From a bacterium (GTDB lineage: Bacteria; Patescibacteriota; Minisyncoccia; UBA6257; Colwellbacteraceae), in NCBI GenBank assembly GCA_029548485.1, contig JAKPNH010000006.1, forward strand, positions 13,937-77,936: a stretch of 64,000 nucleotides of DNA, given 5' to 3'. The notes beneath the pieces are model-generated. The model was not told the DNA's origin. It was given only the letters and a program-made list of their open reading frames with translations, and made no database searches. Below, in pieces: positions 4,853-58,471 of this stretch. A program made the position numbers and the translations under genes. How positions within the stretch are numbered: position 1 is the stretch's first letter; every line of letters begins with the position of its first letter.

Positions 4853-6100
4853 ATGTCCGCTTCGGAAAAAATCGGTCAGATATTGCGAACCCCGGCCGCT
4901 GTTCTCGAAAAAGCCGACCAGGCCTTGGTCGCGGTTTCCGGTAAAACCGACGTTCTCGATAAAATCGTCGAAGAAAACGAAAAAACGATCAGAACCAGAC
5001 TCGATGACCTGGGTCTCGGAAGGAACGTCTACGCGAGCGAGGTCTACGACAGCCTTATCAGCCGCATCGAATCCGACGACAACAAGCTTTTCGAGGCTTT
5101 GGGAAGCCCTTCGTTCAAGTCGTCCGGCGATTGGCAAAAAGTACTGGACGCGGCGAAGCGGGCGGCCGGATCGCCCAGGGGATTTTTCATCAAAGAAGAA
5201 AAAGCCAAAGAATTTATTTTGAGCGAGCCGCCGCTAAACATAATGGGCCTCCTCGGCTACGATTCGGCTTCGGAGATGCTGGCCAAAGAGAATCTTTTCG
5301 AGGTTTTCGCCGCCTTGCGTTTCGTGGAGGGGAACGAATGGCTGAACAATGTTTTCTTCAGACAATACGAGTCTCTTGTCGCTTCGGATCTTGAAGAGCG
5401 TCCGGTGGAGGCGATCGCCTTGTCCGACCGCTGGCTTAAGGCGAGCGAGGGGTTCATCAAGAAGAAATACCACAACATCAGCCACTTGAAAGAACTGGGC
5501 GTGATCTTCAGCCTGCCGCTGCATCTCGTGATTTCCGGAGAGCTTTTGAGGAATTTCAGCTTGATCCTTCATTACTTCAACGAAGTCGATTTTTATTCGG
5601 ATATTTTCAGGGGCTACAAAGACGACGCTGATTTCGCGAAAAAGATAATCGTTCTCCTGAAGGGAGAAAGCGACGAACCGCGTCCGGCTTTCGACGGCCG
5701 GAATTGGCTTATTTTGCCGCGTTATCTCGCCAAAGACGACGAGAACGACCCGAGGCTTTTCGCTCCCCACGTGAACCCCGAGGCTTTTCATTGGAAGAAA
5801 GCCGAAAGAATGCTTTCCTTGATGGGGAAAAACGTCTGGAACATAGATTTTTCTTTTTGGGACGAGCTGAATTGGGTCGGCGACATGTTCCGCGACAATT
5901 CCCAAGGAGAAAAGCTCGTCAGTTTCAATTTGGTGGATACGGTCATGTCTCTCGTCAAGGAAAAGGAAATGATAAAGTACCTTTACCACCACCAGGAAGC
6001 GCTTTGGAACAGGATCATCATCGAGCATCTGGGCGAGGCTTCGGTCGAAGAAGCCGCAAGAAGCAATCTGGTTTACGGGTGGTTCGACATTGCCAAATGA
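4853..6100 (+). CDS. Hypothetical protein between PfkB kinase and fba
   Basis: 415-aa ORF with host-like codons; ATGA overlap with fba. Confidence 0.8.
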   Translation: MSASEKIGQILRTPAAVLEKADQALVAVSGKTDVLDKIVEENEKTIRTRLDDLGLGRNVYASEVYDSLISRIESDDNKLFEALGSPSFKSSGDWQKVLDAAKRAAGSPRGFFIKEEKAKEFILSEPPLNIMGLLGYDSASEMLAKENLFEVFAALRFVEGNEWLNNVFFRQYESLVASDLEERPVEAIALSDRWLKASEGFIKKKYHNISHLKELGVIFSLPLHLVISGELLRNFSLILHYFNEVDFYSDIFRGYKDDADFAKKIIVLLKGESDEPRPAFDGRNWLILPRYLAKDDENDPRLFAPHVNPEAFHWKKAERMLSLMGKNVWNIDFSFWDELNWVGDMFRDNSQGEKLVSFNLVDTVMSLVKEKEMIKYLYHHQEALWNRIIIEHLGEASVEEAARSNLVYGWFDIAK

Positions 6101-35437: not shown

Positions 35438-36748
35438 ATGAAATCTTTTTTGAGAAAACTCACGCCGCAGCCGATACTCAAGGCTTATCATTATTCGATG
35501 GCCAAACTCGGCGCTTTGGTTTACGGATTTCCGTCGAGGAAAATGCTCATTATCGGCATCACCGGCACCAAGGGAAAAACTTCGACCGCCAATTTCATCT
35601 GGAGCCTCCTCAATTTTTCAGGCTGGAAGACCGGAATCGTCAGCACGGCCAATATCAGGATCGGAGACGAGGAATATCCGAACGCCTACCATATGACCAT
35701 GCCGGGAAGATTCGAGATCCAGAAGTGGCTGAAAAAAATGCTCGACGCCGGCTGCCGGGCGGCGATTGTCGAGACCACCTCCGAAGGGATCAACCAGTAT
35801 CGGCACAAGGGCATCGAATACGATTTTCTGGTTTTCACCAATTTGACTCCGGAACATTTGCCTTCGCACGGCGGCAGCTTCGAAAAATACAAGGAAACCA
35901 AGGGCAGAATTTTCGCCGATCTTGAGAAAACCAGGAGAAAAACCCTCCAGGGCAGAGCCATTAAAAAAATCTTTGTCGTCAATGGCGACAGCGAACACAA
36001 AGATTATTTTTTGGGTTTTAAGGCGGACAAAAAAATCACTTTCGGAATCAGGGAAAAAGCGGATTACCGGGCGGAAAACATCAAGACTTTGAACGAAGAA
36101 ACGAGCTTCGATCTCGGATCCGATCATTACGCCGTTTCCATCCCGGGAAATTTCAACGTCTATAACGCCTTGCCCGGAATTATTATCGCCAAAGGACTCG
36201 GCATTCCGGCCGCGGACATAGCCGCCGGATTGAAACGGCTGAAAACCATTCCCGGCCGGATGGAAAAGATCGACGAAGGCCAGGATTTCGCGGTTTTCGT
36301 CGATTACGCCCATGAGAAAGAAAGCCTGACCGCGGTTTTGGAAACGGCCGAATCCATGTCCCCGAACCGCATCATTATTCTCCTCGGAGCCGAAGGCGGG
36401 GGCCGGGACAAATCCAAACGGCCGGTGATGGGAAAGTTGGCCGGAGAAAAAGCGGATTATGTGATCATCTCGAACGTCGACCCTTACGAGGACGAGCCCG
36501 GACCGATCATCGAAGATATCGCCAAGGCGGCCGAAGAAGCGGGTAAGACCAAAGATAAGAATCTTTTCCTGATCGAAGACCGCCGGACGGGCATCCGGAA
36601 GGCGCTTTCTCTTGCGGAAAAAGGAGATGTGGTTTTGATCACCGGCAAAGGAGCGGAACAGTCGATCATCATCGGCGGCAAAAAACGCTCCTGGGACGAC
36701 AGAAAGGTCGTCAGAGAAGAATTGAAAAAGATTTTAAATAAAAATTAA
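35438..36748 (+). CDS. murE: UDP-MurNAc-tripeptide synthetase
   Basis: ITGTKGKTST, FTNLTPEHL, PGRME, VDYAH, GGGRD. Confidence 0.9.
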   Translation: MKSFLRKLTPQPILKAYHYSMAKLGALVYGFPSRKMLIIGITGTKGKTSTANFIWSLLNFSGWKTGIVSTANIRIGDEEYPNAYHMTMPGRFEIQKWLKKMLDAGCRAAIVETTSEGINQYRHKGIEYDFLVFTNLTPEHLPSHGGSFEKYKETKGRIFADLEKTRRKTLQGRAIKKIFVVNGDSEHKDYFLGFKADKKITFGIREKADYRAENIKTLNEETSFDLGSDHYAVSIPGNFNVYNALPGIIIAKGLGIPAADIAAGLKRLKTIPGRMEKIDEGQDFAVFVDYAHEKESLTAVLETAESMSPNRIIILLGAEGGGRDKSKRPVMGKLAGEKADYVIISNVDPYEDEPGPIIEDIAKAAEEAGKTKDKNLFLIEDRRTGIRKALSLAEKGDVVLITGKGAEQSIIIGGKKRSWDDRKVVREELKKILNKN

Positions 36749-36750
36749 AC

Positions 36751-37857
36751 ATGAATAAAATCAAAAAAATATTGTTCGTTATTCTGCTCATAGGAATTTT
36801 TTGGTGGATTCTTTACGACTGGAGCGATTGGAAAATAGAAATGAACCAGGAACAGGTTTTGTCGGACGAGAAAAATTATTCGGAACCGATCGGCGGAGAG
36901 ACAGCAAGTCCGGCTATCGACCCTCGGACCCTTGTCTGGAAAAAAGCTTCTTCAAACGCTCCCTGGGCGCCGAGGGATTCGCAGGGAGGGATCGTCTTTG
37001 ACGGGAAAATGTGGATCTTCGGAGGGCTTCGCGGATTTCCCGAAGCCGAAAACAATTACGGCGTGGCGTCGCACTTCAACGACATCTGGAGTTCGGAAGA
37101 CGGCGTAAACTGGACTCTCGAAAAAGAACACGCCGCCTGGTCTCCGCGAAGATCGATGTCCGTCGAATATTTCAAAGGCAAGCTTTGGATGTTCGGCGGT
37201 TGGAGCACGACCACCGGATACCGCACCGGCGTCTGGGTCTCGGATGACGCCATCAATTGGAAACAGGTTCTGAAAGACGCGCCTTGGGGCGGACGCGAAG
37301 GCCAGACCTCGGCCGTGTTCCAGGGGAAGCTCTGGATGTTCGGCGGATTGAGTTTCGGCGCCAGGCTCGGGGACCAGAATCTCAAAAACGACGTGTGGAA
37401 TTCCGAAGACGGCATCCATTGGAACCTGGTGAACGAGAATGCCGGATGGGCTCCGCGCTACGATCAGGGCGCAACGGTCTTCCAAGACAAGCTCTGGGTG
37501 GCCGGAGGCGTGAGCCACGGCGAGGCCATGAACGATGTCTGGAGTTCGAGCGACGGAATAAACTGGGTTTTGGAAAACGGGAACGCTCCCTGGGAGAAAA
37601 GGCACGGCGTGCCTTTGGTGAATTACAAGAATCGCTTGTGGATTGTAAGCGGCTGGGGAAGCGTGAACGATAAGGGAACGCAAGACGCCTGGTACTCGGA
37701 AAACGGGAAAGATTGGCAAAAAGCCGGAGATTTGGAATGGCCCGGCCGGGAAGACCACGAGGTGATGGTTTTCCAAGACAAGCTTTGGGTGATGGCGGGC
37801 ATGGGGCCTTTCTGGGTTTGGAACAGCGATGTCTGGTATTCGGACTTCGGAAGATAG
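36751..37857 (+). CDS. Membrane-anchored kelch-like beta-propeller protein
   Basis: About six repeats of APW..R...VF..KLW..GG...NDVW.S.DG..W. Confidence 0.85.
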   Translation: MNKIKKILFVILLIGIFWWILYDWSDWKIEMNQEQVLSDEKNYSEPIGGETASPAIDPRTLVWKKASSNAPWAPRDSQGGIVFDGKMWIFGGLRGFPEAENNYGVASHFNDIWSSEDGVNWTLEKEHAAWSPRRSMSVEYFKGKLWMFGGWSTTTGYRTGVWVSDDAINWKQVLKDAPWGGREGQTSAVFQGKLWMFGGLSFGARLGDQNLKNDVWNSEDGIHWNLVNENAGWAPRYDQGATVFQDKLWVAGGVSHGEAMNDVWSSSDGINWVLENGNAPWEKRHGVPLVNYKNRLWIVSGWGSVNDKGTQDAWYSENGKDWQKAGDLEWPGREDHEVMVFQDKLWVMAGMGPFWVWNSDVWYSDFGR

Positions 37858-37877
37858 CATTCGGCTATAATGAATGT

Positions 37878-38420
37878 ATGCCCCGGATAGAATGCGAGAT
37901 ACGCAGTTTTATCGACAAACCGAAATACGAAGAGCTGATCCAAAGGCTTAAAAAAGAAGCGGAGTTTTTGGGCGAGCGGGACGAGGTCACTTATTACCTC
38001 GACGTGCCGCAAGACTTGCGGATCCAGCGGAACGACGATTACGCCAAGATTTGGCTTAAAAAGGGTAAGCTTCACGACGAGGCGAGAGAGGAAATCGAGA
38101 TCCGTTTTTTCAAAGACGATTTCGGGAAAATGGAGAATATGTTGTCCGTCATCGGCATCAATCCGGAAATAAAATGGTTCCGCAAACGGAACGAGTTCTC
38201 ATGGAAGGGAATCCGCGTTTTCGTCGATCATACCAAAGGATACGGATACATTTTGGAATTCGAGCGGATCGTCTCTCCCGAAAAGCAGGAAGCCGCGATT
38301 TCGGATTTGAGAAACAAAATGGCCGAACTCGGCGTGGAAGAGACGCCGAAAGAGGTTTTCGACAAGGCGTTCCGGGATTACAAGGAGTCCTGGCCTTCGC
38401 TTGTGGAGAAAGAACAATAG
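37878..38420 (+). CDS. CYTH domain protein
   Basis: IECEIR, LRIQR, REEIE, GYILEFE. Confidence 0.85.
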   Translation: MPRIECEIRSFIDKPKYEELIQRLKKEAEFLGERDEVTYYLDVPQDLRIQRNDDYAKIWLKKGKLHDEAREEIEIRFFKDDFGKMENMLSVIGINPEIKWFRKRNEFSWKGIRVFVDHTKGYGYILEFERIVSPEKQEAAISDLRNKMAELGVEETPKEVFDKAFRDYKESWPSLVEKEQ

Positions 38421-38497
38421 TCCGGACGGACGTTCTTTGATATACTGAATGAGTACACAGCAAAGGTCGATTCACTTTAAATTAAAGACAAATATAA

Positions 38498-39184
38498 ATG
38501 ACTGTTTTAAATTGGTTGGAGCCATTCGGATGGGCGATCCAGAGATTCTGGTATGAATATCTGTCGCAGCCGTTTATGACTTTGCTCGGTGCGGCGGTCC
38601 TGTTCATCATCGGACTTTTCATCGCGCGCCTTATCGAAAGGTTGGTCGCCCAGGCGGTCAGAGCCTTGAGAATAGATTCGCTTTTGAAGAAAGCCGGAAT
38701 CGAGCCGTATCTCGATCGGGCGAACATCAAACTCGACAGCGGAAAGTTCTTCGGAAAGCTCATCTATTGGTTCATCGTCGGCGCTTTGCTTTTGGTGATC
38801 GCCGACAAGTTCGGCCTTCCGGTGGTGTCGCAATTCATCAGCACCATTTTGAGCCAGGCGACCAGTTTCGTCGGCGCCATCGTCATATTGGTGCTCGCGG
38901 TCATCGTGGCGAATTTCGTCCGGAGCGTCATCCGGGCGGCGGCCATGGGCGCGAAAATGCAGTCGGCGAAACTCATCAGCGTTTTGAGCTGGTGGATCAT
39001 CGTCTACTTCGGCTTGGAGAACGCCTTGAGCAAATTGGGCATCGATATCAGCTTGCTCAAGAATCTGATCTACATTCTCGGAGTGGGACTGAGCTTCGCG
39101 GTCGCCATCGCTTTCGGCATGGCCGGCAAGGATTACGCCAATTCTTTGATCGAGAAATGGCGGGATCAGGTGGACAGGGATTAA
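38498..39184 (+). CDS. TM-helix repeat (MscS-associated type) membrane protein
   Basis: Repeated TM units; AVAIAFGMAGKDYA. Confidence 0.8.
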   Translation: MTVLNWLEPFGWAIQRFWYEYLSQPFMTLLGAAVLFIIGLFIARLIERLVAQAVRALRIDSLLKKAGIEPYLDRANIKLDSGKFFGKLIYWFIVGALLLVIADKFGLPVVSQFISTILSQATSFVGAIVILVLAVIVANFVRSVIRAAAMGAKMQSAKLISVLSWWIIVYFGLENALSKLGIDISLLKNLIYILGVGLSFAVAIAFGMAGKDYANSLIEKWRDQVDRD

Positions 39185-39265
39185 TCCCCGAAAAAGCTTG
39201 ATTTTGAAGGAAAACAGCCCCGCAAGCGCGGGGCTGTTCCTGTTCTCGGCGGGCCAGGCCGGGGG

Positions 39266-39295
39266 TTGACACGGCCAAAGGCCTGCCTGTATAAT
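39266..39295 (+). promoter_or_regulatory. Promoter of the 23S-5S unit
   Basis: TTGACA-N18-TATAAT after the upstream gene's terminator. Confidence 0.8.
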
Positions 39296-39304
39296 TCCTC
39301 TCAG

Positions 39305-39343
39305 ATGATGATGCGAAAGATTCACATAAAACGCGGCTCATGA
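39305..39343 (+). CDS. Leader peptide uORF MMMRKIHIKRGS
   Basis: Triple ATG 9 nt after TATAAT; stop lies in the arm of a hairpin competing with the terminator. Confidence 0.55.
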   Translation: MMMRKIHIKRGS

Positions 39344-39367
39344 AGTCTTAGTTTTGGTGACTGAATG

Positions 39368-39388
39368 AACCGCGAAAGCGGTTTTTTT
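39368..39388 (+). terminator. Intrinsic terminator inside the rRNA leader (attenuator)
   Basis: AACCGC-GAAA-GCGG followed by seven T. Confidence 0.75.
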
Positions 39389-40061
39389 GTTGAGACGACC
39401 GGTATTTCAAAAAATGAATATAATTTGCGCCGACAAACACGGCGCAAAGCAGGAGTCCGCAAGTTCAAACTGGCGGACTTAATTGGCATTTAAATGACCG
39501 GTTTATTTTTTTAAGGGCGCATGGAGGATGCCTTGACACAAAGTGACGATGAAGGACGCGGCGTAGCGGCGATACGCCTCGGGGAGGCGCGTAGCAGCCT
39601 TCGATCCGGGGATTTCCGAATGGGGAAACCCAATCCCGCAATCCGGGATTGATTCCGCACGTAAGTTGCGGAATAGTCGACCCGCTGAAGTGAAACATCT
39701 TAGTAAGCGGAGGAATAAAGAACAATTGTTATTCCCTTAGTAGCGGCGAGTGAAAAGGGAAGAGCCCAAACTTGTTTGAAGTTTACGGCGCAAGCCGGAA
39801 ACGGAAAGCGAGGGTAGTAAGATAGAGACATTCTATTTATGAAGCCGCTCGATGAGAAATCGGAGAGCGACTTTATAAATAGAGGAAAGTTACAAAATGG
39901 TTCGTTAGCCGAATGGACTGGAAAGTCCGGCCAAAGGGAGTGAAAGCCTCGTAGGCGAAAACGAATCATCTTTCTTGTTTTTAATCTTGAGTACTTCGAT
40001 GACAGGAAGCTTCGAAGGAATCATCCCGAACTATCGGGAAAGGCTAAATACACTTTGTGAT

Positions 40062-40098
<37 letters not shown>

Positions 40099-42075
40099 CA
40101 GCCCGGTGAGGGCGGTGAAATAGAACTGAAACCATGTGCTTACAAGGACTCGGAGCCCCGCTTCGGCGGGGTGACGTGGTGCCTATTGAAGAATGAGCCA
40201 ACGACTTTATATTGACTGCTCGGTTAATCCCGCTTTGCGGGAGCAGCCACAGGGAAACCTAGTGTTAAAAGCGCGAACGTCCGCAAGGACAAGGTAGTCA
40301 ATATAAGACCCGAAGCCAAGCGAGCTTACCTTGGTCAGGATGAACTTCCGCGAAAGCGGGAGGGAGGTCCGCACCAGTTGATTGTGCAAAATCTTTGGAT
40401 GAACTGAGGTAAGTAGTGAAAAGCTAATCGAGCTTGGTAATAGCTGGTTCTCTCCGAAATAGTTTTAGGACTAGCGCCAAGAACCGCTTTAGCGGGGGTA
40501 GAGCTACTGGTTTGGTGGTAAAGGGCGAAAGCTCGGCCACCGAGTCAAACTCCGAATACCGCTTTAGAAAAACTTGGTAGTCAGACTGCGGAGGCTAAGC
40601 CCCGTGGTCGAAAGGGAAACAGCCCTGACCGTCATCTAAGGTCCCCAAATTCTTGCTAAGTGTTAAAGGCAGTGCCATGCCATCGACAGATAGGAGGTTG
40701 GCTCAGAGGTAGCCATCCTTTAAAGAGTGTGTAACAACTCACTATTCGAATCCCGCTTTGCGGGAGTGGCGTGACGCGCCGAAAATGTACCGGGGCTAAG
40801 CAAGATACCGAAGATACGGATGTTTCGCGCAAGCGAAGCATGGTAGGAGAGCATTTGGAGCGCGCCGAAGGTCGACCCGCGAGAGCGACTGGAGTGCTCT
40901 GAAGAGAGAATGTTGGCATGAGTAACCCACTTAACCGGTGGGAAACCGGTTCCCCGAAAATCCTAGGTTTCCGTGGCAATGGCAATCATCCACGGGTTAG
41001 GCGGCCCTAAGGCAATGGCGAAAGCCGCAGCCGATGGACTGTTGGTTAATATTCCAACCCTTCCATTTCTTTCGACGGGAGGACGAAGCGCAGTAGGCCA
41101 GGCATCTCAATGGTTTGGTGTCCGTGGTCTAAGGATGGCATTCTGGCAAATCCAGGTGCCTGTCTTTGATGGCGAATCCAAGGACAGCGGCGAATCAAAG
41201 CATTTACTTTGGTGAGTTGGTTGAGCGCGTTTCCGCGAAAAATCTCTAAGGTTAAAGGAATGGAATCCGTACCGGAAACCGACACAGGTGGATAGGGCGA
41301 GTAGCCCAAGGGGTACGAGTGATTTCTCTTTAAGGAACTCGGCAAACAAGCGACCGTAAGTTAGCGATATGGTCTTCCCGCCGCAAGGCGGGACGCAGCG
41401 AAAGTCTCTCTGGCGACTGTTTACTAAAAACACAGCTTCCTGCGAACTCGTAAGAGGATGTATAGGAGGTGACGCCTGACCGATGCGAGAAGGTTAACGG
41501 CGGGGGTGAATTCGGAGCAATCCGGATTTGCTCGCTGCCCGAAGCCCTCGTCAATGTCCGCGGTAACTATAACCGTGTTAAAGTAGCGCAATTCCTTTTC
41601 AGGTAAGTTCTGAAGCGCATGAATGGCGTAACGATCAGAGAACTGTCTCAAAGAGAAGCTCGGTGAAAATGCGATTCCCGTGAAGACGCGGGATACCTGC
41701 AGCTAGACAAGAAGACCCCGGGAGCTTTACTGCAACTTGGTATTGGCTTTAGGGTTTGGATGCGTAGCGTAGTGGTGAGGCTTTGAAGTCTTGTTTTCGG
41801 ATGAGACGGAGCCGACGATGAAACAGCCATCTTTCAAACTTTAAACTCTAACCTTAAGGGCAAAAACCTTAGGGAACAGTGCCTGGCGGGCAGTTTTTCT
41901 GGGGCGGAATCCTCCCAAAGAGTAACGGAGGAGTTTATTAAGGTCAGCTTGGCTCGGATGGAAATCGAGCCTGAAGTGTAAAGGCATAAGCTGGCTTAAC
42001 TGCGAGACCCACAAGTCGAGCAGATGCGAAAGCAGAACTTAGTGACCCGACGAATCTTTATAGAAAGGTCGGAGA

Positions 42076-42109
<34 letters not shown>

Positions 42110-42245
42110 GGTGTTGTCCGAGAGTCCCTATCGACGACAACGCTCGGCACCTCGATGTCGGCCCACCCTAGCGCGGGGCTGGAGAAGGTCCCAAGCGTGT
42201 GGCTGTTCGCCACTTAAAAGGGTACGCGAGCTGGGTTTAAACCGT

Positions 42246-42502
42246 CAGTTTGGCGGCTTTCCCGAGCAATCGGGATTGAAAAAGCTTACTCATATCGGTG
42301 AAGTCCTAAACTTATAATTGCGATATAACCTGTCAATATTTAGGATAATACCGAGGGAAGTTTGCTTTATTGAAATAAAGCATAACCCCGTAGAGACTTG
42401 TTCCTGAGGGAACGGATGGAAGAAATCTTCCATAAGACGTAGGCCTCCATTGAAAAATGGATGATGGTATAGTCCACACATTTGGTAACAGATGATTCAA
42501 TG
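42246..42502 (+). ncRNA. Group I intron at 23S position 2593 (E. coli numbering), no ORF
   Basis: Exons ACCGT|CGTGAGACAG, terminal G, core TATCGGTGAA / AATACCGAG / GAGACT / ATAGTC. Confidence 0.9.
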
Positions 42503-42565
42503 CGTGAGACAGGTTGGTTTTTATCTGCTGCAGGCGTGAAGTGTTTGAGGGAAGTCGACCCTAGT

Positions 42566-42969
42566 GGGCGCGAAAGCGCCTTGCTACTTTGCGGAGTAAT
42601 CCGTAATGACAATGTGGCTTATAACGGTGAAGCCTTCCTTGTTTCTGAAACCAAAATGGATTGTTCCAAAGCATCGGTCCGCTTCGGAACATGTTAATTG
42701 CTTGAGGACCAGAAATAAAAAGGTAATACCGTGGGAAGTCGACCCAAAAACATTGATTTAGCTCATATCGCCGGATTTTTGATGGCGATGGCGTTTTATC
42801 AATTATTGGGTTTGACCCCGTAACGACTTGATCGAAGAGATCGGACTTATATGGATCCAAAGCCTTAAAGGCGGGTCTACATAGGTAATATGCCGCCACC
42901 CCACTATTTCTTTATAGGAATAAGGGTGAAGATATAGTCTACGCTCCTAGAAATAGGGGAATGTACGTG
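42566..42969 (+). ncRNA. Group I intron after U2656 in the sarcin-ricin loop
   Basis: Exons CCTAGT|ACGAGAGGACC, terminal G, core AACGGTGAA / AATACCGTG / ACGACT / ATAGTC. Confidence 0.88.
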
Positions 42970-43048
42970 ACGAGAGGACCGGGTTGAACGAACCTCTGGT
43001 CTATCGGCTTTGCCACCAGGCGAATCGCCGAGTAGCTATGTTCGGAAG

Positions 43049-43081
<33 letters not shown>

Positions 43082-43261
43082 CATCCCAAGATTAGACACT
43101 AGACCCCCGGAAGACTACCGGGTTGATAGGCTCAAGGTGTAAGACAGGCAACTGTTTCAGCCGAAGAGTACTAATAGGTCGTTTATAGACCGGTCATTTA
43201 AGCGCCAATTATATTTAATTCATACTATTGAAATTAGGAACGAAAACGATTAGTATTATCC

Positions 43262-43371
43262 TGCTCGGTGATTAATCGCATGGTGCACCACCCGATCCCA
43301 TTCCGAACTCGGAAGTGAAAGCCGTGCGGGTCGATGATAGTCCTTTGGGCGAAAGTAGATTTTGCCGGGCA
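43262..43371 (+). rRNA. rrf: 5S rRNA
   Basis: CACCCGATCCCATTCCGAACTCGGAAGTGAAA; terminal stem TGCTCGG/CCGGGCA. Confidence 0.95.
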
Positions 43372-43377
43372 TTTGTC

Positions 43378-43411
43378 AAAAGGCCTCCGCCAAACCGGGG
43401 GCCTTTTGTTT
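43378..43411 (+). terminator. rRNA unit terminator
   Basis: AAAAGGCCTCC...GGGGGCCTTTTGT. Confidence 0.75.
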
Positions 43412-43544
43412 CTCTTTCCGCTTTTGATTAATATTTACCTAAATGCAAAGATTGACCAAACAAATCGTCTACGGGTTGTTTTTCCTGGCCTTGATCGGGG
43501 CCCTAGCCGCGGCCCTGCGATTTTTGGCGAGCCGATAACGCACC

Positions 43545-44615
43545 ATGGGATTCCTGAAAAAACTTGATTGGCAGTTGAACCTGAGCGTCGGCCTGCTTTT
43601 GCTTTTTGGTATCTTGACGCTCGCTTCGAGCACCGAAGTCTTGATTTGGCGCCAAACGCTTTGGATTCTGGTCGGCGCGGCCATCATCTTTTCCGTTTCT
43701 TTCATCAACCTCAAGAGGCTGATGAGCTACCGGTGGGTGGTGATCGTCATCTATCTGGTGAGCGTCGGCCTTTTGATTCTCACCTTATTGATCGGCAGCG
43801 AAGCGGGCGGAAACAAAAGCTGGATCAACATCGGAAGTTTCAAATTCCAGGCTTCGGAATTCGCGAAGATCGGACTGATCGTCATCCTTTCGAAGTTTTT
43901 CAGCCGCAGCCACATCGGCATCAAAAGATTCGGCGTGATCTTCACTTCTTTCGTCTATCTCCTGGTGCCGGTTTTCCTGATTCTGCTTCAACCGGATCTG
44001 GGAACGGCCCTTATTTTCGGAAGCATCTGGGCGGGATTCCTTTTGGTCTCCGGGCTGCCGATGAAATACGTAGCCGTGGCTTTGCCGATCCTCCTTTTCT
44101 GCGGGCTGATCATCTGGAATTTCGGGCTCCAGGGCTATCAAAGGAACCGCATCATCGGCCTTTTGAAGCCGGATGCAGATCCGCTGGGAGTGAATTACAA
44201 CGCCATCCAGTCGAAAATCGCCATCGGCTCCGCCGGCTGGTTCGGCAAGGGATTTAGCCAGGGAGCCCAGGTGAGGCTCGGATTCTTGCCGGCGGCGCAG
44301 ACCGACTTTGTCTACGCGGCTTTTACCGAAGAATGGGGTTTTGTCGGCGCCATGGTTCTGGTTATCGTTTTCCTTTGGATGATATGGCGGATCCTCCAGA
44401 TCGGAATGAAAAGCCACGGGAATTTCGACAAATTCATCTGCATCGGAAGCGCTTTGCTTTTCATTTTCCAGTTCGCCATCAACGTCGGCTCCACCCTCGG
44501 TTTTCTGCCGGTCATCGGCGTCGGGCTGCCTTTCGTGAGCTACGGCGGCTCGAGCCTGTTGACCTCGTTTATTTTGATCGGTATCATTCAAAACATTGCC
44601 GCGACCACGATTTAA
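43545..44615 (+). CDS. rodA: SEDS family protein RodA/FtsW
   Basis: FQASEFAK, QPDLGT, QSKIAIGSAG, TDF..EEWG, LPFVSYGGSS. Confidence 0.9.
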   Translation: MGFLKKLDWQLNLSVGLLLLFGILTLASSTEVLIWRQTLWILVGAAIIFSVSFINLKRLMSYRWVVIVIYLVSVGLLILTLLIGSEAGGNKSWINIGSFKFQASEFAKIGLIVILSKFFSRSHIGIKRFGVIFTSFVYLLVPVFLILLQPDLGTALIFGSIWAGFLLVSGLPMKYVAVALPILLFCGLIIWNFGLQGYQRNRIIGLLKPDADPLGVNYNAIQSKIAIGSAGWFGKGFSQGAQVRLGFLPAAQTDFVYAAFTEEWGFVGAMVLVIVFLWMIWRILQIGMKSHGNFDKFICIGSALLFIFQFAINVGSTLGFLPVIGVGLPFVSYGGSSLLTSFILIGIIQNIAATTI

Positions 44616-56814: not shown

Positions 56815-58471
56815 TCCCTTTAAGGGATTTGATTTTGACGATAAGCTGGGAGATTTTCCGGCGGTCGGAAGAGTCGCATCTTATTTTGACCGTCTGGAAT
56901 CCGCTGCCGGTCGGGTTGGCCGAGAGGTTGACCAGGCTTAAATGGTTGCGGCCGACGACGTTCGACAAGTCTTTGATCAAATCCGGCCGAGCTTGGGCGA
57001 CGATGTGAAGCTCCGTCTGTTTCGGCTCGAAAAGCGGCCCTTTGTCTTTGAGGGCTTTTTTGATGCGGCTCACGGCCGACGAGGTTTTGACGAATTCGAG
57101 CCAGGAAATCGAGGGCTTTTTCCCTTTATGGACGACGATCTCCACGATGTCGCTCGATCGGAGTTCGTGGTTCAAAGGTACTATCTTGCCGTTAACTTTG
57201 GCGCCGACGCACTGGTTTCCGAGATCGGTGTGGATCTGGTAGGCGAAATCGATCGGGGTGGCTCCGGCCGGCAAGTCGACCACCTGGCCTTTGGGCGTGA
57301 TCGCGAAAATGCGGTCTTTGAAAAAATCCATTTTAAGGGCGTCGATGAAATCCGCGGAATCGGTTTCTTCTTCCTGCCAGGCGCGGAGCCGCTCCACCCA
57401 GGAGATATCCTGGTTCTTGGCGAAGGAGACGCGTTTTTTACCTCCGGATTTCGCTTCTTCGTAAGCCCAGTGGGCGGCCACGCCGTTTTCCGCCTCTTCG
57501 TGCATCTCCATGGTCCTGATCTGGAACTCGACTATTTTCTGTCCGACGCAGAAGACGACGGTGTGCAAACTCCGGTAGCCGTTCGGCTTGGGCATAGCGA
57601 TATAATCTTTGATCCGTCCGGGTAAGGGCGGCCAAAGCTTGTGGACGACGCCGAGCGCGGCGTAGCAATCCTGAATGTTCTCGACGATGATGCGGAAAGC
57701 GACCAGATCGTGGATCTTGTCGATATCCATGTCGTACCGCAGGAGTTTTTTATAGAGGCTCGAATACCGCTTGGCCCGGAAATCGACTTTGAGCGGTTTG
57801 ATGTTCGCGAGCGTCAGTTCCTTGATAACGATCGGTTTGATCCTTTTCAGGTATTTTTCCCGTTCGGCATATCGGGTTTTCATGTTGGAGATTAGCCATT
57901 TGTATTCCTCCGGATAGAGATAAGGGAAGGCGAGGTCTTCGAGTTCTCCGGCGAGCCTTTGCATGCCGAGCCGGTAGGCAAGCGAGGAATATATTTCGTA
58001 GGTTTCGAGGCTGATCCTTTTTTGCTTGTCCGAAGGAAGGGATCTCAAAGTCTGCATGTTGTGCAGCCTGTCGGCGAGCTTCACGAAAATCACCCGGAGA
58101 TCTTTCGAGGTGGCGAGTATCAGTTTTTTGATGTTGTCTTTCTGCTTCTCGTCTCCGCGGTATTTGATGCGTCCGAGCTTGGTCGTGCCGTCGACCAAGT
58201 TCGCAATTTGAGGCCCGAAATTCTTGTCGATTTCCTCCAGGCGGCAGCCGGTGTCTTCGACGACGTCGTGCAAAAGCCCGGCGGCAATGGTCGTTTCGTC
58301 GAGATTCCAATCCGCCAGGTTCTGGGCGGTCTTGAGGCAGTGATTGATATAAGGCTCTCCCGAAGCCCTTTTTTGGTTTTTGTGGCAAGATTCCGCGAAA
58401 AAATAAGCCCGGGAAACAAGGGAGGCCCGGTTTTCCAAGGCTTCTTTTTTGACGTCTCTTCTAGTCTCCAT
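56786..58471 (-). CDS. rel: RelA/SpoT homolog (HD-SYNTH-TGS-ACT)
   Basis: RASGEPY..H, LLHDVVED, KPNGYRSLHT, EFQIRT, TGS. Confidence 0.93.
   Translation of the reverse strand: METRRDVKKEALENRASLVSRAYFFAESCHKNQKRASGEPYINHCLKTAQNLADWNLDETTIAAGLLHDVVEDTGCRLEEIDKNFGPQIANLVDGTTKLGRIKYRGDEKQKDNIKKLILATSKDLRVIFVKLADRLHNMQTLRSLPSDKQKRISLETYEIYSSLAYRLGMQRLAGELEDLAFPYLYPEEYKWLISNMKTRYAEREKYLKRIKPIVIKELTLANIKPLKVDFRAKRYSSLYKKLLRYDMDIDKIHDLVAFRIIVENIQDCYAALGVVHKLWPPLPGRIKDYIAMPKPNGYRSLHTVVFCVGQKIVEFQIRTMEMHEEAENGVAAHWAYEEAKSGGKKRVSFAKNQDISWVERLRAWQEEETDSADFIDALKMDFFKDRIFAITPKGQVVDLPAGATPIDFAYQIHTDLGNQCVGAKVNGKIVPLNHELRSSDIVEIVVHKGKKPSISWLEFVKTSSAVSRIKKALKDKGPLFEPKQTELHIVAQARPDLIKDLSNVVGRNHLSLVNLSANPTGSGFQTVKIRCDSSDRRKISQLIVKIKSLKGIKEIDYRFV

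Follow-up and report, generated by a model that had tools for sequence, protein, structure and literature searches.

A single rrn promoter is thought to hold the 16S, 23S and 5S rRNAs in step, and a 23S gene that stands apart from the 16S gene raises the question of what matches their output. The genome studied here, a 541 kb assembly of 97% completeness from the ultra-small Patescibacteriota, has one 23S-5S unit and one 16S gene, the latter on a separate contig (G000:C8:4501-6011). The 23S-5S unit lies in the window, by which we mean the whole analysed stretch of 64,000 nucleotides; positions refer to it unless a contig is named. Patescibacteria are described as exclusively unlinked in the available text of Brewer et al. 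(10.1101/705046), where unlinking is called seemingly disadvantageous, drift or tolerance of imbalance is offered as an account, and no mechanism is given. The leader ahead of this 23S gene suggests one, and its parts are as follows.

39266..39295, + strand: sigma-70-type promoter TTGACA-N18-TATAAT, matching 12/12; an equivalent promoter is present in relatives
39305..39343, + strand: upstream open reading frame (uORF) of 12 codons, MMMRKIHIKRGS*, with TGA at 39341-39343; frame conserved in 66/77 elements
39332..39341, + strand: arm A, the 5' strand of the antiterminator, core GCGG at 39333-39336; core GCGG or GTGG in 74/75
39344..39362, + strand: inner antiterminator stem AGTC/GACT enclosing the U-tract (TTTT at 39352-39355), a predicted fold
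39365..39374, + strand: arm B, the strand shared between the pairings with A and with C, core CCGC at 39370-39373
39368..39388, + strand: intrinsic terminator AACCGC-GAAA-GCGG-T7, arm C at 39378-39381; hairpin alone -10.2 kcal/mol
39402..39415, + strand: boxA-like site, weak at 4.1 bits, 3' of the terminator
39480..39506, + strand: 5' strand of the 23S processing stem, pairing with ~43185-43211; duplex -36.6 kcal/mol
39501..42561, + strand: 23S rRNA gene, unlinked from 16S (Rfam RF02541)
43264..43370, + strand: 5S rRNA gene (Rfam), with a terminator 3' of it at 43377-43408

The promoter, uORF and terminator positions given in the preliminary description hold on recheck, as does the pairing of CGCGGCTCAT (39332-39341) with ATGAACCGCG (39365-39374) at 9 of 10 positions. 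The promoter is the only 12/12 match within 36000-44000 and one of three in the genome. The uORF ATG at 39305 lies 9 nt past the -10 box and opens a run of three tandem ATGs, any of which could be the start. Arm A overlaps the final uORF codons and the stop, and the U-tract at 39352-39355 is a candidate pause site for the polymerase. The site at 39402..39415 is a candidate boxA; a NusB gene is encoded in the genome. The stem at 39480..39506 would be a substrate for RNase III. Attenuation as first proposed presupposes that the 23S gene has no promoter of its own further downstream, and a sequence scan between the terminator at 39388 and the 23S gene finds none at this locus, with such a promoter in 1/77 relatives.

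Three DNA runs, each from a different study, yield contigs with no listed differences across 39262-39393, yet with flanks that vary, and thus the leader is not an assembly artefact; another genome (G002) is identical in sequence across the uORF, the arms and the terminator. Contigs of X15, one of six RNA runs with small shares, yield pieces inside the 23S only, which count neither as support for nor as absence of a leader RNA. The leader has no Rfam match at the gathering score, and the window yields rRNA and tRNA families only. Around the leader, the gene upstream of the promoter (38498-39184) carries a mechanosensitive-channel transmembrane helix (PF05552) and is closed by its own hairpin ahead of the leader promoter. 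Towards the other end of the unit, a long insertion with ORF-like stretches, possibly an intron, occupies 42280-42900 near the 3' end of the 23S, and in the ~700 nt gap between 23S and 5S the 23S-like sequence picks up again, up to ~43185.

Is such a leader a feature of this genome or of a lineage? The order-level set comprises 109 23S loci, 60 of them hand-picked for family spread among the matches listed, and 30 16S loci; duplicate loci and one lacking a 5' end were dropped from the 23S set. With a detector that is blind to the ORF (promoter, arm A as GCGG, arm B as CCGC, arm C as GCGG and a T-run), the full architecture is found ahead of 79/109 23S genes and 0/30 16S genes, and a looser terminator test gives 99/109 versus 4/30. 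The preliminary description had spoken of rRNA synthesis in general and had suggested a comparison of 16S and 23S leaders; the element belongs to the 23S-5S side only. The positives reduce to 77 distinct elements from 20 families. In a phylum-wide sample, a rule of core plus ORF is matched by 28/68 23S leaders and by none of 78 control windows. A second scan of genome contigs with a pattern that omits the ATG gave 103 hits, 80 of which were fetched; 32 of these 80 precede a 23S gene (24 of the 32 being new), and an in-frame ATG is present in 29/31 distinct elements among them. Lineages represented among these hits include Colwellbacteria, Liptonbacteria, Yanofskybacteria, Wildermuthbacteria, Kuenenbacteria and Kerfeldbacteria. 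A looser motif rule that matches 8/30 16S loci was dismissed, as the cores it picks up are in every case 5' of the promoter of the 16S gene.

The element is retained where the 16S gene sits 1.4-4.7 kb upstream (L282, L294, L299). Unlinked 23S genes of family f9 are without it (6/6), as are those of a few other lineages; the f9 leaders L091, L098, L099, L102 and L116 are short, AT-rich and terminator-free, a natural loss. In the class of genome G419, where part of the 23S starts are extrapolated, promoter plus core plus ORF is absent from the 23S loci whether they are linked (19), near-linked (3), unlinked (6) or unclear (2), and from 30 16S loci too. Because family f9 and all six unlinked genomes of that class lack the element, a lack of it in linked operons cannot be separated from an effect of lineage. 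Two linked operons of the same class (L374 and L365, family f148) have a promoter and a hairpin-T run within the pre-23S spacer, which may be another type of attenuator. On the 16S side, leader L123 (G052) has an ATG 9 nt past the -10 box and an ORF of four codons, together with a terminator and a long helix in competition, possibly a switch of different sequence. Leaders L121 and L135 share a hairpin that ends in GGCAGGTGTATT and leads into a run of pyrimidines, weakly resembling a terminator. Two loci 4.7 kb apart on one contig (L171 and L199) carry identical copies of promoter, uORF and attenuator; one copy precedes the 23S gene and the other a Y1_Tnp (PF01797) ORF flanked by short repeats, which looks like insertion into, or duplication of, a 23S leader.

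The uORF is under selection for frame and spacing, as judged from comparison of the sequences, and its peptide is not conserved. An ATG stands ahead of arm A in 74/77 elements and is missing from 3/77. In 66 of the 77 distinct elements the frame set by the first ATG stays open as far as arm A and has its stop 0-30 nt beyond the point where the arm begins, a test that the other two frames (+1 and +2) pass in 6 and 13 of 77; shuffled sequences pass 7.9±2.8 times (maximum 17 in 1000 shuffles), or 36±4 times (maximum 51) when the ATG is kept. Where a stop triplet lies 5 nt into arm A, the ATG is in frame with it in 30/32 elements. Distances from ATG to arm peak at 22, 25, 28 and 31 nt, and 53/74 share one phase. 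Amino-acid and codon tallies reveal no conserved sensor codon or residue among the uORFs (K 15%, I 12%, L 10%, T 9%, N 9%). What is kept of the short uORF that the preliminary description foresaw is its length, its frame and an ending encoded by the arm (SG*, RG* or CG*); the RKIHIK-like peptide is not. In a few families the ORF ends well before arm A (f16, passing the frame test in 0/3; f6, 0/1; f7, 0/1).

The leaderless start proposed for this uORF could apply across its order, where the ATG lies 6-18 nt past the -10 box in 69/77 elements (for comparison, an ATG is near the -10 box in 6/29 16S promoters, with a slightly narrower window, and in 12/58 promoters genome-wide), and it is not general in the phylum, where 16/24 elements with a promoter have the ATG 30-113 nt past the -10 box and are thus often leadered. 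Leaderless 70S initiation is therefore not essential to the element. Since the 3' end of the 16S gene (G000:C8 ~5990-6011) is without the anti-Shine-Dalgarno CCTCC, the missing Shine-Dalgarno at the uORF says nothing.

The antiterminator and the terminator are mutually exclusive, share one strand and covary across the 23S leaders. The cores are GCGG/CCGC/GCGG in 56/75 elements and GTGG/CCGC/GCGG in 14/75, and two elements alter all three arms jointly, to GGGG/CCCC/GGGG and GTGG/CCAC/GTGG. Next to the cores, the base after core A is complementary to the base before core B in 57/75 (36±3.5 by permutation), as C-G, A-T or G-C pairs. The inner stems vary in sequence, yet each strand is bound more tightly by its own partner (-9.6 kcal/mol) than by partners taken from other elements (-5.7 kcal/mol, n=66). 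These are anchored counts; a MAFFT alignment of 46 of 60 candidate leaders (A2) gave 34.8% paired, no better than shuffles, a count that is uninformative because arm B is not aligned in register, and no conserved sequence past the arms and the U-tract. The U-tract itself is frequent, with TTTT between A and B in 51/77 elements (20±3.5 when shuffled), its median start 19 nt past arm A; the remaining 26/77 have a run of at most three T. The best boxA-like site is 3' of the terminator in 72/77, a region that makes up 64% of the length scanned.

Folding of this leader alone yields a modest statistic (z -2.07; 7/200 shuffles fold as well), and the case thus rests on conservation. Its minimum free energy structure when naked is the antiterminator, at -22.2 kcal/mol versus -20.7 with the terminator forced, as the preliminary description would have it; across the elements, the antiterminator of the naked RNA prevails at equilibrium in no more than 34/74 (median P(term) 0.56), so that the ON state relies on A:B forming first. 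When the transcript is truncated ahead of arm C, B is predicted to be sequestered in 68/74. A ribosome was modelled with a footprint that reaches P-site+15. Placed at the stop, it is predicted to let the terminator form in 69/74, the polarity originally proposed, in which translation favours termination. The masking of arm A by a ribosome at the stop codon is borne out in the model, and the flip would come sooner than had been supposed, since the modelled ribosome already covers arm A from codon 5-7 in 59/74, whereas a ribosome on the AUG falls short. The stop lies 24-37 nt before B in 67/74 elements and at least 24 nt before it in 74/74. The later the stop, the longer the A-B stem tends to be (rho 0.61, n=67, six with a stop before the arm being dropped), a trend that keeps the stop-to-B distance near 30 nt; a ribosome plus a polymerase have a footprint of ~30 nt. 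The stop thus seems, on this modelling, to be placed so as to keep the ribosome off the 5' arm of the terminator.

In this leader, the modelled outcome is P(term) 0.90-0.99 with the ribosome on the first ATG and 0.09-0.90 with it on the third. The leader can build a protector hairpin of its own, and the modelled outcome therefore depends on which ATG is used. A protector hairpin between uORF and A-B interval, an idea that arose from this fold and a few relatives, would, if conserved, invert the logic for untranslated RNA. It was rejected as a conserved feature: own partners pair at -7.27 and others at -7.09 kcal/mol (p 0.97, n=66), in a test whose positive control gives p 2e-9.

By a modest balance of probability, we read the leader as a ribosome-mediated attenuator without sensor codons that gauges the supply of 50S or 70S and cuts 23S-5S output back to the level of the unlinked 16S. 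Support for the switch itself is good, and its purpose is what we infer. The polymerase would begin at the strong promoter and probably pause at the U-tract. An elongating ribosome past codon 5-7 would cover arm A, leave B to pair with C, and stop transcription after ~85 nt. Should none arrive in time, A and B would pair first, no terminator would form, boxA would be passed and 23S-5S made. An initiation complex on the AUG would stop short of arm A, and a 30S awaiting a 50S would score as 'no ribosome'. The distance from AUG to arm A, just past the initiation complex, suggests that the leader asks whether the 50S has joined. A shortage of 50S (or vacant 70S) would then turn the unit on and an abundance would turn it off, so that 23S-5S, overproduced and then trimmed by that supply, would match the separate 16S. 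Four features fit such an overproduce-and-trim device: the absence of sensor codons, the placement ahead of 23S alone, the AUG-to-arm distance and the somewhat stronger 23S promoter, which is nearer to consensus than the 16S promoter in 13/20 genomes and further in 4 (p 0.049, like all p-values here overstated by kinship among the genomes). Because leaderless mRNAs can initiate on 70S, the near-leaderless starts of this order, a trait not common phylum-wide, could sharpen the sensing of 50S or 70S. A sensor of total ribosomes would err when 30S is limiting, and the purpose proposed here thus requires slow 50S joining or vacant 70S.

The same switch could instead serve general feedback of free ribosomes on rRNA synthesis, while a different mechanism would control 16S in parallel. 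All of the anatomical evidence applies equally to that reading, as do the near-leaderless starts of the order, given that leaderless mRNAs can initiate on 70S according to the available part of PMC8459731, and terminator-like hairpins are present in a few 16S leaders (4/30; see also L123 above). We nevertheless hold it to be unlikely: none of the 30 16S leaders of the same order carries the element, as would suit a balancing of the subunits better than a feedback that covers every rRNA, and 11 linked-operon leaders of another class are without it. Moreover, many elements are leadered, and leaders of a few nucleotides reduce leaderless initiation (PMC8459731, same part). Global control could be exerted by RelA/SpoT, whose domain is present in a 564-aa frame (window ~57449-57778, - strand). 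For the same reason an attenuator that replaces ppGpp is ruled out. Improbable to a greater degree is a sensor of translation stress, in which a stall in codons 1-4 (by antibiotic or uncharged tRNA) would free arm A and induce 23S-5S. The geometry permits it, with the flip at codon 5-7, and described uORF sensors act through stalling, as far as the available text of PMC12121999 goes; the uORFs, however, have no residue or codon in common. Under the stringent response, starvation is not expected to raise rRNA output, and extra rRNA on starvation would oppose it. The 23S-only placement would also go unexplained unless the drugs hit the 50S, in which case this reading merges with subunit balancing.

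Two further readings dispense with the ribosome count or with the ribosome itself. In an element without ribosome switching, whether it acts as a constant damper, as a small RNA or as a switch that binds a protein or a ligand, the ORF would be incidental, as the elements lacking an ATG and the ORFs of f16, f6 and f7 that end before arm A might suggest. We regard this as very improbable, because the elements differ in sequence and yet keep the frame, the triplet spacing and the distance from stop to B, and the leader has neither an Rfam match nor anything conserved in alignment A2 beyond arms and U-tract. Still more doubtful is a nucleotide sensor that resembles pyrBI but has the opposite sign, in which low UTP would lengthen the pause at the U-tract and let the ribosome catch up, with termination as the result. 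The enrichment of TTTT and its position past arm A are in its favour; against it, about a third of the elements have at most three T (the 26 noted above), the U-tract may serve only to time coupling, and the reading gives no reason for the asymmetry between 16S and 23S.

Compared with known systems, the leader would work like a leader-peptide attenuator, one that departs from the amino-acid family on two tested traits and from pyrBI in polarity. Transcription attenuators with leader peptides include trp, his, leu and pheST, with which it shares a short uORF overlapping an antiterminator arm, a shared strand, an intrinsic terminator, and full translation favouring termination. Unlike in these, the target is a non-coding rRNA and sensor codons are absent; the trp/his type also has a 1:2 protector hairpin, which is not conserved here, and an untranslated leader should thus read through rather than super-attenuate. 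In coupling attenuators of the pyrBI/pyrE type, the distance between ribosome and polymerase sets the outcome. A sequence-independent leader ORF, a U-rich pause and a decision by that distance would be common to both, but the sign is opposite, since the ribosome here stays at least 24 nt from the 5' arm of the terminator and would block the antiterminator. Feedback on rrn in E. coli acts through ppGpp and the initiating NTP at the promoter. There too, excess ribosomes reduce rRNA synthesis, indirectly, at initiation and for three rRNAs, whereas the control proposed here would be direct, in cis, post-initiation and confined to 23S-5S. Leaders of the vmlR type are antibiotic-sensing uORF leaders. 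Like that of toiL, so far as the available text of PMC12121999 describes it, the present uORF would read ribosome performance and control a ribosome-related gene; those leaders, however, control protein genes via stall motifs, and no stall motif is conserved here. The rplJL leader of B. subtilis likewise balances a ribosome component via terminator and antiterminator, but there, in the available part of PMC4538822, the leader is that of an mRNA and is bound by an r-protein complex in its free form, whereas here the translating ribosome would set rRNA output. A literature search over titles and the beginnings of abstracts, with most subscription papers outside its scope, returned no description of a leader-peptide attenuator on rRNA.

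The preliminary interpretation as a whole is partly supported: the uORF and the mutually exclusive folds are conserved, and the target of the proposed feedback is narrowed to 23S-5S. The leader of ~125 nt is a concrete candidate mechanism for matching unlinked rRNA genes. It would also place a translated ORF within a pre-rRNA, overlooked by annotation pipelines, and would be a case of the ribosome directly gating rRNA transcription. The chances seem about even that much of Patescibacteria balances its ribosomal subunits by such a cis assay in the pre-23S leader, making 23S-5S only if the 50S has not joined. If true, the ribosome would directly autoregulate its own rRNA, and the equimolar output of unlinked rRNA genes would have an explanation.
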